A stretch of DNA of 27,211 nt from a virus. Its lineage: Duplodnaviria > Caudoviricetes. Positions 6,035 through 23,930 of this stretch are shown piece by piece (within the stretch, counting starts at the first letter, position 1; each line of letters starts with the position of its first letter). The stretch is from the IMG/VR virus record IMGVR_UViG_3300030746_000040, positions 1-27,211 of that record. One strand, written 5' to 3'. Position numbers and translations under genes: made by a program. The notes below the pieces were generated by a model that worked only from the letters and a program-made list of their open reading frames with translations, was not told the origin of the DNA and made no database searches.

Positions 6035-6110
6035 TGGCTGGCTCTCTTGGATTCGAACCAAGAACGACGCGGTTAACAGCCGCGCACTCTGCCGTTTGAG
6101 CTAAGAGCCA
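6035..6110 (-). tRNA. tRNA-Asn (GUU), CCA encoded
   Basis: TGGCTCT/AGAGCCA acceptor stem, GCTC/GAGT D arm, CGCGG-CTGTTAA-CCGCG anticodon arm, CTTGG-TTCGAAT-CCAAG T arm, G discriminator plus CCA; 76 nt. Confidence 0.97.
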
Positions 6111-7905: not shown

Positions 7906-10008
7906 TTAGAGTTGGCAAGCGTATTCTAACGTGATGGAGGTCACGCCGGATACGGTTTGCGTATTGACGATGGTGAAGTGGGCAGTCGTGGTTGAGTTGC
8001 TGAAGAGTCCGTAGTATGCGACCCCACCAGATTGCTGAAGGGTGCAAAAGGGAGCGGCCGCTAGACTGGAGGCGAAGTTCAACGTGCCCAGTACCTCCGA
8101 GGTAGTGGCAGATGCGTTGGTGATGGTAATGAAGCCACGCGATTGTGTTGAGCCAGCAGTGACGGAGCAAGAGGTGACACCGGTGCCAGCTGCGCAGGTA
8201 GGCAGGGAACCATTTGAAGTTAGGATCGGTCCCTTGAATGTTCCTGTGCCTTCGAAGTCGCCGGAATTGACCTGGGTGACGTTGGCGGTTGTGATGGACG
8301 CGATGGCTAATGTGGTTGTTCCGCCGTTGCGCCCTAAGTCGGGATTGTTACCAATGACGACGAAGTGGCCGGATGTGCCCGTCTTGAGAACTGCGTCTCC
8401 GATGATGATGGAGCCGCCGCCGCTTATGGGCGTCTGATAGACTGAGGCGCAGGATGAGCACGTCGAGGCTGCGGTCAGGTTGATGTAAGTGTTCTGTTGG
8501 CCGTTGTCGGTTACGTCTACTCCCGCTGTGCCCGCGCCGTTACCTTCGAGATCGGAGTTGATGAAGGTGTTCAGCTTGTTGGATGTGCCAGGATTGACGC
8601 CGTTGCCGGTGGTATTGATGAAAATGCCGTTGCCGGTGAGGTTGTCTTCCGATGTGCCGCCCATAAAGGTCAGGTTGGTAGCGGAAGTCAGATACCATCC
8701 GGTGTTGGAAAGACCCTCGTCGATGGCGTCGATTACTGAGGAATCGGTTGAGTCGATGGTGCCACCGATTGTGTTGCCGCCGAAGATTTTGCCAAAGGCA
8801 GGAACGGTGTGCGAACCAGATTGGATGCCCTGGTAGAAGGCATCGTTCACTGAGCAATGGAGCGACTGGTAGGTGTTCGTGACAGCGCCGTGGACATCGA
8901 GGCAGGCGTTGACCGCGCCCCACATCTTGATTCGGCTGAAGTCGGAGCGGTTGACGAAATCGAGACGGAGGGCGTCAGTTGCGTTGGCCGCGCCGCCATA
9001 GATGTAGAGGTCGCGGATGTCGATGGAATTGATGCCGTTGGAGCCGTAGGAGCCGCTGCCGGTTGTGCCGTTGACATAGAGAACGGCGGCGACGGTTGAG
9101 CCCCCGGTGTACTCAATCTGGGTCATGTTGCCACCCATACCCCAAAGTCCGACGCCGCTATTGGTGATAAGCTGCTGAACGGTCGATTGGATGTGGACGA
9201 CGCCGAGTTGCAGCGTGACGGCCGCGGTGGTCGATCCCGCTAGGCCGAGTGCGAACATGTTGGTGGCGCACGTCTGCGTGCCTGAGAAGTTCTGCCCATT
9301 GACTAAGGGGCGACTGTTTGCGATGGCGTAGATGAGCGCGGCATTGATCTTGGCGCACATGTCGGAACCGGCGAACTGATCGGCTTGGACTACTCCGTTG
9401 ATGGTGTAGGATGAGATTCCCCAGGGCGAGGGGATGATTAGGTTGCCTTGGAGTGTGCCACCTGTGATGGGAAGAGCCGCAGTAGTTGACGGGGAGTTGG
9501 CCGCGCACTGAGGTACATATTGGGCGTTGAAGCCTGTGAAGATGGGAGTTGCGGCTGGGCAGTAGGCTCCAGCGGAGTTGCCGATGACGGGCGGCACGAA
9601 ATTGACCGGAACCTGGGTACTGAGGTTGATGGTGGAGTTATCGACGAGTCGGTAGGTGACGGTGGGCGCGATTGGGAATCCATTGTCCATCCATGTGAAG
9701 GCGTAGGTCGTGTAGGATTGGGTGCCGCAGATGATCTTATCGTTGCCGGGTAGCACGCCGGTCACAACTTGAGAGGCGTTGGCCGTGAAGGGTGCGGCGT
9801 AGGTCTGGTTCGGCGTGTTGGAGATGGGCAGGTTGTTGTAGTAGGGAACCGCGCCATTGCCGCAGCCGACTATTTGGGCGCGCAGCGTGAGTACGTCGCC
9901 GGAGTTCAGGGTGAAGGAGCCAGTGGCCGTGAAGTTGACGAGGCCGATCTGCGCCATCCCCGGTAGCGAGGAGAGCAGTACTGCGAGGATGGCGAAGATG
10001 CGTTTCAT
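7906..10008 (-). CDS. Tail spike/fibre-like beta-helix protein with N-terminal signal peptide (start reassigned to 10008)
   Basis: AAGGA RBS, then MKRIFAILAVLLSSLPGMA|Q; LPITGGTLQGNL fibre motif, ADQFAGSDMCAKINAAL beta-helix cap, G/S/T/N-rich repeats, C-terminal LPTC...GST.SRG.ITI domain. Confidence 0.75.
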   Translation of the reverse strand: MKRIFAILAVLLSSLPGMAQIGLVNFTATGSFTLNSGDVLTLRAQIVGCGNGAVPYYNNLPISNTPNQTYAAPFTANASQVVTGVLPGNDKIICGTQSYTTYAFTWMDNGFPIAPTVTYRLVDNSTINLSTQVPVNFVPPVIGNSAGAYCPAATPIFTGFNAQYVPQCAANSPSTTAALPITGGTLQGNLIIPSPWGISSYTINGVVQADQFAGSDMCAKINAALIYAIANSRPLVNGQNFSGTQTCATNMFALGLAGSTTAAVTLQLGVVHIQSTVQQLITNSGVGLWGMGGNMTQIEYTGGSTVAAVLYVNGTTGSGSYGSNGINSIDIRDLYIYGGAANATDALRLDFVNRSDFSRIKMWGAVNACLDVHGAVTNTYQSLHCSVNDAFYQGIQSGSHTVPAFGKIFGGNTIGGTIDSTDSSVIDAIDEGLSNTGWYLTSATNLTFMGGTSEDNLTGNGIFINTTGNGVNPGTSNKLNTFINSDLEGNGAGTAGVDVTDNGQQNTYINLTAASTCSSCASVYQTPISGGGSIIIGDAVLKTGTSGHFVVIGNNPDLGRNGGTTTLAIASITTANVTQVNSGDFEGTGTFKGPILTSNGSLPTCAAGTGVTSCSVTAGSTQSRGFITITNASATTSEVLGTLNFASSLAAAPFCTLQQSGGVAYYGLFSNSTTTAHFTIVNTQTVSGVTSITLEYACQL

Positions 10009-17650: not shown

Positions 17651-17760
17651 GTTTTGAGATTACGCTTGACAACTCGTGAGCACCATGTCACTTTAGTGTT
17701 ACATGGTTACTTTTTCCCACCGCCGAGTTACCTGCGTTTGTCCATACGACGAAAGTTGTA

Positions 17761-17790
17761 TTGACGCGCGCCGGGTCACTCTGCTACAAT
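17761..17790 (+). promoter_or_regulatory. Sigma70-type promoter
   Basis: TTGACG, 18-bp spacer ending TGC, TACAAT. Confidence 0.6.
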
Positions 17791-17886
17791 CGGTTACCGA
17801 AGTAACTTTCGCCTTTTCTTCCCCTAGACGTCTAGGTGTCTCAGATTTGAGTCACAAAGCCGGTTTGTGTATCATTTTTGAGACAT

Positions 17887-18083
17887 TGACGATATTTTGA
17901 AAGATCGGTGACGATATTTTGGAAGATCGAGGCGTGCCCCAGAGTGGTTCATGCATTCAACCGCGGGAACCTTTCGGGGCAAGTGACTGACGATATTTTG
18001 GAAGATCCGCTTGACACCGCTCAGTGAGTTTGCTACATTCAACTTACGGCATCGGGAGTCGATGACGATACTTTGGAAGATCG
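17887..18083 (+). repeat. Four 21-bp direct repeats, consensus TGACGATATTTTGGAAGATCG (iteron/operator-like)
   Basis: Copies at 17887-17907, 17909-17929, 17988-18008 and 18063-18083, each within 1 mismatch of the consensus. Confidence 0.92.
18011..18039 (+). promoter_or_regulatory. Sigma70-type promoter
   Basis: TTGACA, 17-bp spacer ending TGC, TACATT; 2 bp downstream of repeat copy 3. Confidence 0.75.
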
Positions 18084-19118: not shown

Positions 19119-19148
19119 TTGACAACATCCCCCAATTTCCTGTAGATT
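19119..19148 (+). promoter_or_regulatory. Sigma70-type promoter
   Basis: TTGACA, 18-bp spacer, TAGATT, followed by GTATTTGGAG (identical to the 19968 promoter). Confidence 0.75.
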
Positions 19149-19170
19149 GTATTTGGAGAGGTCGAGATGA

Positions 19171-19341
19171 ATGATTTTACCTACACTGGACGATTATGAC
19201 AGACGCGATGGGCAGAGTCATCCTCTGCCTTCCCGCGTAAGAGAAATTTTTGAAGAGGTTGAATCAGAATTACACGAAGAAATTGAGGAGTACTGGGAAG
19301 AATACGACCACGATCTCGGTCAAGATTATTACGAAGACTAA
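19171..19341 (+). CDS. 56-aa highly acidic protein (not in ORF track)
   Basis: MILPTLDDYDRRDGQSHPLPSRVREIFEEVESELHEEIEEYWEEYDHDLGQDYYED; GAGG RBS; stop overlaps the next RBS. Confidence 0.7.
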   Translation: MILPTLDDYDRRDGQSHPLPSRVREIFEEVESELHEEIEEYWEEYDHDLGQDYYED

Positions 19342-19887: not shown

Positions 19888-19944
19888 ATGTGGTCTGTCA
19901 ATTTAGTTCCATAATGGAATGATATTGACATCCACACTTGGGGG

Positions 19945-19973
19945 TTGACAAGACCCGATAAAACTGGTAGATT
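19945..19973 (+). promoter_or_regulatory. Sigma70-type promoter driving the large structured RNA
   Basis: TTGACA, 17-bp spacer ending TGG, TAGATT; predicted start near 19980. Confidence 0.8.
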
Positions 19974-19979
19974 GTATTT

Positions 19980-20378
19980 GGAGGGGTGGAAATTAAACAC
20001 TCCTCCGCTGAACGACAATGGCCGTTCAGTCACACTCATTACAACAATTGCATTAGCGACGATGGGCCGAAAGGTCAACAGTCGCAAGTCCGGACAACGT
20101 GCCTGAACCTCACGAACCGGCGGGGCACAATTGAAAGTAATGAGTGTGACTGAGCGGCCAATTCTGTCTCTGCAACAAGCCAGCGCGCTTTCCCGAGGCT
20201 AGGGTAAAAATGCGGGGTTGCGTGGAGACAGAAGCCGCTCACGATCTGCCGCAATACCCCAACTGACTCGCCCACAGAAGCCGAGGATCCCGGCGCGGGC
20301 ACTTAAGTAGGTGAGCGGCACCCAAGGGATCACACCGGCGACTAGGGCGTCCAGAGTCATCAAATGCGGATGTGATCC
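19980..20378 (+). ncRNA. About 400-nt multi-domain structured RNA of unknown family
   Basis: Five consecutive closed domains: 19980-20006; 20019-20160 (24-bp stem); 20162-20233; 20234-20319; 20327-20378. G.U pairs favour the plus strand; no plus-strand ORF in the track. Confidence 0.78.
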
Positions 20379-20397
20379 ACCAATTTTAGGAGGTTGT

Positions 20398-20448
20398 ATG
20401 AAGAAAGCAGTGATCGCATTCATCCTGGGCCTGACAACTCTGCCATAA
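20398..20448 (+). CDS. 16-aa hydrophobic peptide MKKAVIAFILGLTTLP
   Basis: AGGAGG RBS 4 nt before ATG; KK plus hydrophobic core; TAA at 20446-20448. Confidence 0.5.
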   Translation: MKKAVIAFILGLTTLP

Positions 20449-20891: not shown

Positions 20892-21039
20892 ATTGACCGA
20901 GGAAAGTTTGATGATGGCATTGCGCGGTGCCATTGTGCTAGCCAGGGAGCATCAGGCTGAAGATGTGGAGCGCATCATACGAATGCAGATTATGTCTCTC
21001 GTAGGTGGCAATCGAATGAAGGTGATACATGAAGATTGA
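20881..21039 (+). CDS. 52-aa hypothetical protein (not in ORF track)
   Basis: MKIELTEESLMMALRGAIVLAREHQAEDVERIIRMQIMSLVGGNRMKVIHED; fills the gap and overlaps both neighbours. Confidence 0.6.
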   Translation: MKIELTEESLMMALRGAIVLAREHQAEDVERIIRMQIMSLVGGNRMKVIHED

Positions 21040-21871
21040 CAATTCGCGCTACTCGGCCTTCTGGGCCAACCCAGAACTGTACCGGCTGACGTATGAGAAG
21101 AATATCGTGCCTATCATTGTGCCATATTATTTCGGCCGTGGCATCCTGATGCATGAGTTGAATGAGAAGCGCAACAAGGCCGCGATGTCAGTCAAGAATT
21201 TGAAGGCTGAGCCGCAGCGGTTGAGCGACAAGTCGAAGCAGATGGGCACAGCGTTGTTCGCCGCATTCAAGCAGCGATGGGACGGCGACAAGTCCATCCA
21301 GCTGATGCATGACGATGGCCGTCCGCTTGCTGAGGTCGCGTTTGATTTGCCCATACCGGGCTCACCACATCACATCGTCGGCAAGTTCGACGAGATCGTT
21401 CAGTACAAGGATGCCGCATGGGTAGGCGATACGAAGACAGCGAACGCCAAGACGACCGAGGGCAAGAAGAAAGTTGAATTTGGCTATGCGTCACAGCCAC
21501 TGTTCTATATCAATGCGGCGCGGATGCTGGGCTATCCGGTCAAGGGCATGTTGTATCGCGTGGTGACGGAGCATGTGCCACCGAAGCACTGGGTCATCGA
21601 AAGCAAACGGACTGACTATCAACTCGCGCAACATCTGGTGAGTGTGCATCAGACGGCCGAGACAATCTTGATGTACCGGAGGGCATTTGGTGTCGACAAA
21701 CCGTGGCCGCATCTGTGGTCTTATCCATGCAACTATCCTGATTGGCAAGGTAATCCTACTTGCGAGTACGCTGGCATCTGTGGTCGCCCAACTAGCGAGT
21801 TGTCCGAAGAAGATCTAGCCAGCTTCACACAACGCATCGATCACCTGGGTCTGGAGGAAGAAAATGTGTAA
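21029..21871 (+). CDS. PD-(D/E)xK nuclease (RecB/Cas4-like exonuclease)
   Basis: G...HE, E, GKFD, VGDTKT and Q...Y motifs; C-terminal C...C.Y..IC. Confidence 0.88.
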   Translation: MKIDNSRYSAFWANPELYRLTYEKNIVPIIVPYYFGRGILMHELNEKRNKAAMSVKNLKAEPQRLSDKSKQMGTALFAAFKQRWDGDKSIQLMHDDGRPLAEVAFDLPIPGSPHHIVGKFDEIVQYKDAAWVGDTKTANAKTTEGKKKVEFGYASQPLFYINAARMLGYPVKGMLYRVVTEHVPPKHWVIESKRTDYQLAQHLVSVHQTAETILMYRRAFGVDKPWPHLWSYPCNYPDWQGNPTCEYAGICGRPTSELSEEDLASFTQRIDHLGLEEENV

Positions 21872-22823: not shown

Positions 22824-23930
22824 ATGGGAATTGAAATCAAGAAGACGCTGACGCCGGTTGTGGTGGGCGAGAAGCTGGGGGTTGATGGTGGAGGCGAAGA
22901 GGCTCCTGAGGTGCTTGTTCCGAGTGACGTTGATCTTGTACGCGGTCGGATTATCATGGACTACGGAGATAGCGGCGACGGCAAATCTACTCGTGCTCAT
23001 TCTTTCGCTCGATACTACTATGCTAAAACCGGTCTGCCTATCGTTCTGGTTTCGGCTGAAGATTCGAGCAAGACTGTCTTTCAAGATCTTATCGACGCTG
23101 GAATTGTTGTGCCCATCTTCCTTATATCTTCAACTACTCCGCTATCTACGTATGAGCGGATCGTAGAGGGGGATCTGCCGCAGCCTGGGCAGTTCGATGT
23201 GATCAAGAAGACCGTCAAGATAGACGGCAAGGAAGTTGTGCAGGAAATCAAGAAGCAGAAGTGGACCACGAAGGAAGAGAATCATGGAAAGTATGGAGCC
23301 TACATCTTTGAAGGAGTCAGCACCATTGTCGAGAACGTGCTCGACTACTTCCGAGAGACCGGCCGGTTCCCCCGCGAGCAGAACGACGGATACTCAGAAG
23401 GCGGCAAGACCTTCATGGCTGCGTCCCAGACAGCTTTTGGCGTGGCGCAGGGAGAGGGACTGAAGCTGGTGCGTAACTCGGCGATGCTGCCGGTTGAACG
23501 CATCTTGTGGACGAGTCACGAGTCGAAGGGGAAGGATGACGATGGCAACCTCATCAGAGGACCAAAACTTGTTGGCTCAGCGGCGACAAACACTATGCGA
23601 AAGCTGGTGGGAATTTTGCTCCACACTGAGCGCGTCGATGGTGGACAGATCCGTGTTTATTTCGAAAACCATGCTGACCAGTTTTCTCCAAAGGTCTCGT
23701 GGAAAGCGAAGGTTACGGTCAACCCGTTCTTTGCGACCGAGTTGAAGAAAAAGTTTCCGGGCGGCTACTTTGTACCGAAGTTGCCCGAAGGCCAGGACTA
23801 TCTGGCCGCAGAAGACGGCCTGATTCCCTTCCTGAAGATGGAAGAAGAAGTCAGGGCAAAGGGATCGCGGGGCGCAAGTGATTTTGCCGCCGCGGTTAAG
23901 AGCAAACTTACACAAACCAAGGAGAATTAA
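22824..23930 (+). CDS. AAA_24/Sak4-like P-loop ATPase (recombinase candidate)
   Basis: Walker A YGDSGDGKST, Walker B-like YIFEGVST, SHE motif, GPKLVG; between an exonuclease and an SSB-like gene. Confidence 0.8.
   Translation: MGIEIKKTLTPVVVGEKLGVDGGGEEAPEVLVPSDVDLVRGRIIMDYGDSGDGKSTRAHSFARYYYAKTGLPIVLVSAEDSSKTVFQDLIDAGIVVPIFLISSTTPLSTYERIVEGDLPQPGQFDVIKKTVKIDGKEVVQEIKKQKWTTKEENHGKYGAYIFEGVSTIVENVLDYFRETGRFPREQNDGYSEGGKTFMAASQTAFGVAQGEGLKLVRNSAMLPVERILWTSHESKGKDDDGNLIRGPKLVGSAATNTMRKLVGILLHTERVDGGQIRVYFENHADQFSPKVSWKAKVTVNPFFATELKKKFPGGYFVPKLPEGQDYLAAEDGLIPFLKMEEEVRAKGSRGASDFAAAVKSKLTQTKEN

Follow-up and report, generated by a model that had tools for sequence, protein, structure and literature searches.

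Genomic Context of the Element

The DNA analyzed here (27,211 nt, referred to as the window) comes from the genome of a tailed phage known only from uncultivated material. Genes for the terminase, portal, and capsid are encoded on its minus strand, and those for an exonuclease, a Sak4-like protein, a phosphoesterase, and HNH proteins on its plus strand. A structured RNA element (19945-20378) is found on the plus strand upstream of a PD-(D/E)XK exonuclease gene (21029-21871, plus strand; Pfam PF12705), which is the downstream neighbor in all family members described below, and of a gene for a Sak4-like annealing protein (22824-23930, plus strand; PHROG 124). This agrees with the first-pass annotation, which had placed the element ahead of recombination genes. 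Directly behind the RNA, the sequence and its translation reveal a strong ribosome-binding site and a 16-codon hydrophobic open reading frame (20388-20448, plus strand; reading frame at 20398-20448). The phage sequence was found in peat metagenomes (24 runs listed, all of peat DNA, as possible sources), and an Acidobacteriota host is hinted at solely by a palindrome in common with genomes from the phylum of genome G052 (Acidobacteria).

The RNA is preceded by a sigma70-type promoter-like site (TTGACA-17-TAGATT, 19945-19973, plus strand) with 10 of 12 matches and a TG before the -10 box, from which the transcript would start near 19980. The near-consensus promoter described earlier is thus present, but the match alone is weak, since a scan of the window gave five such sites where 2.4 ± 1.4 were expected. 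A similar site is found ahead of the element in the related locus L021, ending about 7 nt before the helix, and another was recognized by eye in L013, where the scan did not call it. A second promoter-like site (19119-19171), 826 nt upstream, is a near-duplicate of that of the RNA. In L014, a T5orf172/MUG113-family gene (9054-9590) lies between the promoter-like site and the RNA.

Other features were noted in the window. A tRNAAsn gene identified by ARAGORN and Rfam (6035-6110) is located upstream of the terminase gene; it was the only ARAGORN call in the window, and no cloverleaf or tmRNA layout was found in the element. At 17701-18000, two tiles of non-coding sequence are more stably folded than their shuffled versions (z -4.5 and -3.3), and an 18-bp repeat is found in four copies (17889, 17911, 17990, and 18065) in the gap between the divergent operons. 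These repeats are possibly phage repressor sites or iterons. One copy of the repeat in L014 (position 9836) overlaps the ribosome-binding site right behind the RNA.

Predicted Fold of the Element

The region 19945-20378 folds with a minimum free energy (MFE) of -177.3 kcal/mol (z -7.44), which none of 100 shuffles equaled, and its reverse strand folds about equally well (z -6.67). The signal is concentrated in the 5′ core, with z -8.7 for 20019-20160 (boundaries chosen after looking) versus z -1.8 for 20161-20385. Fixed 150-nt tiles split the core between them; of 181 such tiles, 7 fell below -3, and the one at 19951-20100 scored -3.3 and was not the lowest. All helices named in the first-pass annotation are complementary where it had drawn them, and the structured region that it had described is real.

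In the ensemble of 19980-20390, mean pair probabilities are high for the 9-bp 5′ hairpin (19980-20006, plus strand; 1.0), which has a similar counterpart in L013, for the 24-bp helix (0.99), and for its CAAUUG extension (0.91), as well as for GCGAC (1.0), GGCC (0.99), UUCUGUCUCU (0.97), GCCGCUCAC (0.90), and GGAUCACA (0.98). Low values were obtained for CCGG (0.09), CGUG (0.25), and UGACUC/GAGUCA (0.01). Despite its low predicted probability, the proposed CCGG arm is backed by covariation. The possible cross-domain pairing UGACUC/GAGUCA is complementary as claimed but was seen only in an alternative fold. Downstream of the core, hairpin P5 (20162-20233, plus strand; pair probability 0.97) starts with UGUCU, in common with L013 and L014. 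The remaining 3′ domains (20243-20378, plus strand), which in the in silico fold contain a fifth segment (20311-20319) and a hairpin (20327-20378), are phage-specific: no alignable counterpart was found in L013 or L007, and only a loose one in L014.

The element was not matched by any Rfam model at its gathering score, in line with the earlier remark that it belongs to no recognizable family; at E ≤ 10 only five microRNA models appeared, far below their cut-offs. When Rfam 15 was run over the window and 14 loci from the homolog search, only tRNA genes reached the cut-off, and ribozymes, ROOL, GOLLD, OLE, raiA, SRP, RNase P, and introns were unmatched.

Relatives of the Element

Direct DNA searches failed, and therefore the DNA around homologs of the downstream exonuclease was examined. 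Among 16 non-self metagenome loci, 12 carried the element, three had at most 3 nt of upstream sequence, and one (L015) lacked it in 391 nt. Starting from the window alone, nhmmer recovered L013 (E 1e-17) and L014 (E 5e-5), with L021 (0.017) below threshold, and L007 (identical to L009 and L016) was recognized by eye. A model (R1) built from the window, L013, L014, and L007 found L021 independently (E 2e-5). A short form was detected by eye and with a descriptor in L017-L019, L020/L022, L023, L024, and L027, bringing the set to 10 distinct sequences, five long (including the window) and five short. The short forms, with natural minimal versions of about 85 nt, are probably homologous to the long forms; R1 missed them, and a further model (R3) missed the long forms and gave L020/L022 only at E 0.45. 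Homology is favored by the specificity of the descriptor, which picked up just one site outside the family when 115 loci were scanned (1.28 Mb on each strand), and by the common strand and downstream gene of all members. L060 was rejected as a false positive of the descriptor.

All members lie on the same strand as the exonuclease gene, with 198-1344 nt from loop to start codon (13 loci, including the window), and the exonucleases of member phages are 43-72% identical to that of the window. The four long homologs outside the window are all found upstream of this same exonuclease gene in related soil phages, and in L014 and L007 the element follows the first gene. The short forms are mostly found beside tRNA-like genes.

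Searches elsewhere gave no further members. Blastn against cultured phages and plasmids returned short chance matches only, and pattern scans of viral contigs returned the same phage and non-members. One scan gave a single match (the phage itself), another two matches (including L029, unscored by R1), another four, of which three were non-self (L113 proved to be coding), and another 34, none scored by R1 and none with the fold. Of 24 matches in a pattern scan of GTDB, the best had an R1 E-value of 0.025 and all were judged chance, and no relatives of the exonuclease were found in GTDB. R1 matched only the same phage among 50 virus records and nothing in 151 genomes of the G052 phylum (run without a positive control), and R3 gave one match in 41 records (E 0.024), which lacked the loop. 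Six phages encoding a more distantly related exonuclease lack the element in the 14-15 kb surrounding that gene. Within the element, contigs assembled from four DNA runs contained no variant letters. In two runs (X20 and X22), short contigs of relatives cover window positions 20057-20179, with P3 (two differences) and the 3′ side of P1 retained and the middle replaced; more family members therefore exist in peat. Word searches of an open-access library found no published description. The element thus represents a new family of phage RNAs, and within the collections searched it was restricted to a single phage clade.

Conserved Structure and the Cap

The first-pass annotation had described a single RNA of about 400 nt with five domains. 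This was not supported: only the first 260 nt or so have counterparts in relatives, and the last two domains are variable or absent. As far as the aligned sequences go, the conserved unit is the 5′ part of about 260 nt, and the 3′ 140 nt are mostly phage-specific. The conserved unit is built on a long helix (P1) capped by a three-way junction. In the window, the 5′ strand of P1 lies at 20019-20050 and includes the upper CAAUUG, and its 3′ strand lies at 20128-20160 (both plus strand). Between them are a junction AUUA with arm P2 (20052-20085, plus strand), which has a GAUR/RARCA internal loop and, in three of four aligned members, a GNRA loop. The family hallmark follows at 20086-20124 (plus strand) and consists of AAGU, arm P3, the 7-nt loop CUGAACC (20103-20109), and CGGG. 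It was found in all 10 distinct sequences, and P2 is reduced or absent in the short forms. The cap is the sole part common to all.

Covariation was counted in a hand-anchored, ungapped alignment with registers set by eye, and the shuffles used for comparison ignore relatedness. On this basis, 87 of 90 P1 cells in the five long members are paired, the three exceptions being a single G-G position, and in 16 of 18 columns both strands vary (mean of paired cells in shuffles 54.8; 0 of 10000 as high). The base of P2 is paired in 20 of 20 cells (four members), with changes on both sides in all five columns, and P3 of the long members in 20 of 20 cells (20 of 10000 shuffles as high). The long members contain eight G-U but no A-C pairs on the plus strand, which points to this strand as that of the RNA. 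The first-pass annotation had named a conserved reading frame in place of conserved pairing as a refuting result; instead, the relatives retain the pairing, and each frame is open in at most one of the five long members.

Across long and short forms, P3 is paired in 62 of 63 counted cells, L020 being excluded from the basal part and L021 from the apical part of this count. For the short forms the basal count is circular, as the descriptor required these pairs, whereas the apical pairs, which it did not require, hold in 9, 10, and 9 of 10 sequences. The unpaired bases W-A-R-U, the 7-nt loop YUGARCC, and YGGG are near-invariant. P3 has a predicted pair probability below 0.4 in seven of nine members; a helix that covaries yet is predicted to pair this poorly suggests stabilization by tertiary contacts or by a partner. 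A conserved cis pairing partner for the loop was absent within -200/+400 nt in 6 of 13 loci, including the window. The loop YUGARCC is complementary to the tRNA T-arm word GGUUCR, and the A/G variation of the loop would face a U.

A Predicted Two-State Base

Further comparison revealed a feature absent from the earlier description of the element. Four segments capable of alternative pairing are common to the window, L013, L014, and L007 (four of five long members), and segments 2-4 are absent in L021 and the five short forms. In the window, segment 1 lies at 20007-20014, segment 2 within the 5′ strand of P1 (20023-20029), segment 3 within its 3′ strand (20150-20157), and segment 4 behind P5 (20234-20242; all plus strand). 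Segment 2 can pair with segment 1 or 3, and segment 3 with segment 2 or 4, so that a zipped state (2:3) is set against an unzipped one (1:2 and 3:4). Instead of segment 3, segment 4 can also pair with 20311-20319. The gap between the two folds by constrained MFE is 4.4 kcal/mol in the window, 2.2 in L013, 2.8 in L014, and 3.2 in L007, and by ensemble energy 2.1-6.5 kcal/mol. Compared with L013, L014, and L007, the window contains a compensated change: the three relatives have a G-G in 2:3, where the window has a C in segment 2 and a G in segment 1, and 1:2 is retained. The cap is at least 10 bp away from the switch.

When progressively longer prefixes were folded, 1:2 was predicted at 0.89-1.0 before segment 3 and 2:3 at 1.0 just after it; once segment 4 had been added, 3:4 reached 0.015-0.33. 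The full-length ensemble at equilibrium is zipped in a fraction of 0.97-1.0. Tested singly against 5000 shuffles, the strongest helices were matched by 3 (the 8-bp 1:2 helix of the window) and 5 of 5000, and others were at chance level (1:2 in L014, 992; 3:4 in L014, 1033, and in L007, 640 of 5000). Downstream of the zipped helix, the first 8 nt contain 6 U in L013 and L014, 5 in L021, 4 in the window, and 2 in L007. The sequences of the window, L013, L014, and L007 have no U run after segment 4, and no terminator was called there in the window or L013. In the unzipped state, the predicted accessibility of the next ribosome-binding site rises in L014 and L007, falls in the window, and stays the same in L013.

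Comparison with Known RNAs

The closest layout is that of cATT-pLS20, a tested zipper-type attenuator with a three-part layout and near-equal energies of its two states (PMC13401043). Both RNAs lead long operons and place a long central stem between two hairpins, a weak one upstream and one downstream, whose strands can zip the stem further; this likeness is one of layout, and a plasmid search found nothing. An upstream hairpin, a central stem, and a downstream hairpin exclusive with the extended stem were found in four of the five long members, and the two states are similar in energy (2.2-4.4 kcal/mol by constrained MFE, 2.1-6.5 by ensemble). In cATT-pLS20, intrinsic termination takes place at the downstream hairpin, and zipping prevents it (PMC13401043). 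In contrast, the phage RNA has no U tract after its downstream hairpin, and in some members a U-rich stretch follows the zipped helix instead, so that polarity would be reversed or the output different. Moreover, its stem bears a sequence-conserved three-way junction, and it belongs to a phage rather than to a Gram-positive plasmid. Because the defining downstream terminator is missing, the phage RNA is not filed as a zipper-type member despite its zipper-like layout.

HK022 put (PMC9378689) and conAn2 (PMC8191782) are likewise structured RNAs near the start of a long phage or plasmid operon. Put is described as a pair of stem-loops of about 73 nt (PMC9378689), whereas the phage RNA is a closed long helix with a junction; moreover, few terminators lie downstream at the phage RNA loci and no partner gene is known. 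ROOL, GOLLD, OLE, and raiA are similar in being structured bacterial or phage RNAs of unknown function, some with members near tRNA genes. The phage RNA differs in its conserved part of 90-260 nt with three to five helices, its restriction to one clade, and the lack of an Rfam match.

Three-way junctions with a GNRA-capped arm and similar junction words are also found in c-di-GMP-I riboswitches. In these the GNRA loop docks on a receptor in the P3 internal loop. In the phage RNA, by contrast, the receptor-like word occupies a terminal loop of 7 nt, the short forms do without the GNRA arm, and P1 is very long. No match to RF01051 was found in two records at E ≤ 10, in a search of uncertain sensitivity (0 of 14 controls over the cut-off), and the assignment was dropped. 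RF00013 (6S RNA, a rod with a central bubble) gave no match in three records at E ≤ 10, with 4 of 14 controls over the cut-off; genome G052 from the putative host phylum was also without a match, which makes the sensitivity of this model for Acidobacteriota uncertain. For 6S, c-di-GMP-I, TPP, SRP, 5S rRNA, and tmRNA, as for twister, twister-sister, pistol, HDV-like, group I and II introns, and phi29 pRNA, either the order of parts was wrong or no model matched.

An Upstream Palindrome Resembling AbiE Operators

A 35-bp palindrome (19896-19930) with 17-bp arms around 1 bp ends 14 bp before the -35 box of the RNA. Many peat contigs contain it between different flanks. Four sites with 1-3 mismatches were detected in the G052 phylum (Acidobacteriota), in 3 of the 401 genomes scanned (control, 0). 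All four lie upstream of AbiEi antitoxin genes, three adjacent and one about 630 nt away (L192-L195, site at 1501), and L192 also encodes an AbiEii toxin. The inverted repeat in the phage is a candidate copy of the operator of a host AbiEi-type antitoxin. AbiEi is known to repress its own operon through inverted repeats, and the antitoxin-bound Streptococcus agalactiae operator consists of two 23-bp repeats 3 bp apart (PMC7319586), compared with the 17-bp arms around 1 bp seen here. In E. coli, an AbiE system assayed against 32 coliphages protected from none of them (bioRxiv 10.64898/2026.01.19.700257), so that a defense role of the host system is itself no more than putative. No copy of the palindrome was found in the loci of other family members scored; therefore it is a lead on this phage and not a family trait.

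Proposed Role and Alternatives

Comparison and folding predictions suggest that the element is likely a leader switch joined to a binding module. In the specific reading that we favor, with a probability of roughly one in three, a zipper-like, two-state leader switch with a protein-binding cap would act ahead of the recombination genes. Here the fold and the pairings 1:2, 2:3, and 3:4 come from comparison and the folding order from prediction, and termination, partner, and expression are inferred. Helix 1:2 is predicted to form first in the nascent RNA, after which the upper helix would zip down and displace it, giving 2:3. Should zipping be complete when transcription has reached the U-rich stretch that follows segment 3, a short RNA of about 185 nt would be released. 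If 1:2 persisted, 3:4 would form and the exonuclease-Sak4 operon would be transcribed. The G-G mismatch in 2:3 would adjust the balance of this race, and a cap-binding factor would bias it or be titrated by the short RNA. The switch is supported by the covariation, by segments 1-4 in four of five long members with two folds of similar energy, by the compensated change in the window, by the predicted order of pairing, by the U-rich stretch behind the zipped helix in L013, L014, and L021, and by the analogy of layout to pLS20 (PMC13401043); the poor predicted pairing of the covarying P3 fits a partner or tertiary contacts at the cap. Against it count the U tract, which is absent in L007 and weak in the window (2 and 4 of 8, respectively), the distance of at least 10 bp between cap and switch, the lack of a terminator after segment 4, the inconsistent effect on the ribosome-binding site, the helices within chance, and the dominance of the zipped state at equilibrium. 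It is also informed by only four sequences, and L021 and the five short forms keep the cap without segments 2-4.

These last sequences, together with the position of the short forms ahead of tRNA-like genes, make a stand-alone, trans-acting small RNA the main rival. It would serve as decoy or sponge for a host protein that binds RNA or targets tRNA, with the alternative pairings as folding aids or chance, and we regard it as possible though doubtful. The decoy, scaffold, and ribozyme roles put forward in the first-pass annotation are likewise hypothetical. The cap alone being common to all 10 sequences fits such a molecule, as do the promoter-like site some 7 nt before the helix and the U-rich stretch after it in L021, and the L017-L019 short forms, which directly follow a tRNALeu gene with common AU-rich flanks. 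Yet segments 1 and 4 are kept in four long members, with a compensated change, the element was never seen away from the exonuclease operon in the loci found, and the homology of the short forms rests on the descriptor (R1 missed short and R3 long forms). An RNA that acts in a larger counter-defense scheme was also considered: the AbiE-operator copy would let the RNA be made on loss of the antitoxin, the cap, which in relatives is found beside tRNA and tRNA-like genes and has a loop complementary to GGUUCR, would decoy a tRNA-targeting toxin, and the zipper would couple this to the recombination genes. Related toxins are reported to act on tRNA acceptor stems (PMC7450476, PMC10435456); the full scheme is very unlikely.

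The other explanations rank below the small RNA. A cis-acting processive antiterminator like HK022 put or conAn2, whose cap would bind RNA polymerase and carry it through the early operon, is unlikely. It would suit an element that is transcribed first after a promoter-like site in the window, L013, and L021 and always lies upstream of a long operon, places that put and conAn2 also occupy (PMC9378689, PMC8191782). However, a simple scan gives 0-4 weak terminator-like hairpins downstream, with one in 7 kb of the window, the element follows the first gene in L014 and L007, and short forms are found among tRNA-like genes. Near-invariant unpaired junction bases next to a downstream two-state platform could instead point to a riboswitch-like sensor that binds a small molecule (e.g., a defense signal nucleotide) and sets the switch. 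Its junction words resemble those of c-di-GMP-I riboswitches. With RF01051 unmatched at E ≤ 10 in G000 or G001, a 20-30-bp helix that would form regardless of ligand, and no platform in 6 of 10 sequences, this is quite improbable. The chances are just as slim for cleavage of the early transcript at an RNA-processing signal or by a new ribozyme: the long helix suits a double-strand RNase, short forms occur at tRNA boundaries, and the junction is conserved, but no Rfam ribozyme family matches the window or the 14 homolog-search loci, and a plain RNase III site would presumably not need a conserved cap. The constant linkage to recombination genes could also reflect a single-stranded DNA hairpin, a priming or recombination site for the neighboring exonuclease, Sak4, and SSB-like genes. 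The eight G-U versus no A-C pairs and the GNRA loops on the transcribed strand argue against this, as do the promoter-like site of its own and the location inside tRNA clusters, and it is the least probable explanation of all.

Few phage regulatory RNAs are known outside model phages. The comparisons establish a real and new phage RNA family of narrow distribution, for which a switch is plausible. Owing to covariation across phages, minimal versions of about 85 nt, and a modular build with a constant cap and an optional two-state base, its structure and function are directly testable. If the leader switch works, the recently described zipper attenuation would extend from plasmids to phages, probably with a different output, and if the cap is a decoy, soil phages would have a further, new tool made of RNA. 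Independently of this, the palindrome resembling AbiE operators offers a testable lead to a phage that may read or titrate a regulator of host defense.

Irregular tRNA-Like Genes and a Second Non-Coding Stretch

Irregular tRNA-like genes follow the short form in L017 (6460-6555), L018, L019, and L023, and shorter ones are found in L020, L022, L024 (365-430), and L027. They have a T arm, with an extra loop or missing arms, and were called by neither ARAGORN nor Rfam. They recall the irregular tRNAs of PMC5389517; in its irregular-tRNA supplement, the words searched for occurred inside tRNA sequences only, among the matches listed. L017 (5735-6010) and L023 also contain a near-identical second non-coding stretch behind a promoter-like site, with a weak fold (z -1.2). 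This stretch has three words of 8-9 nt in common with the 3′ half of the window's element, perhaps by chance.
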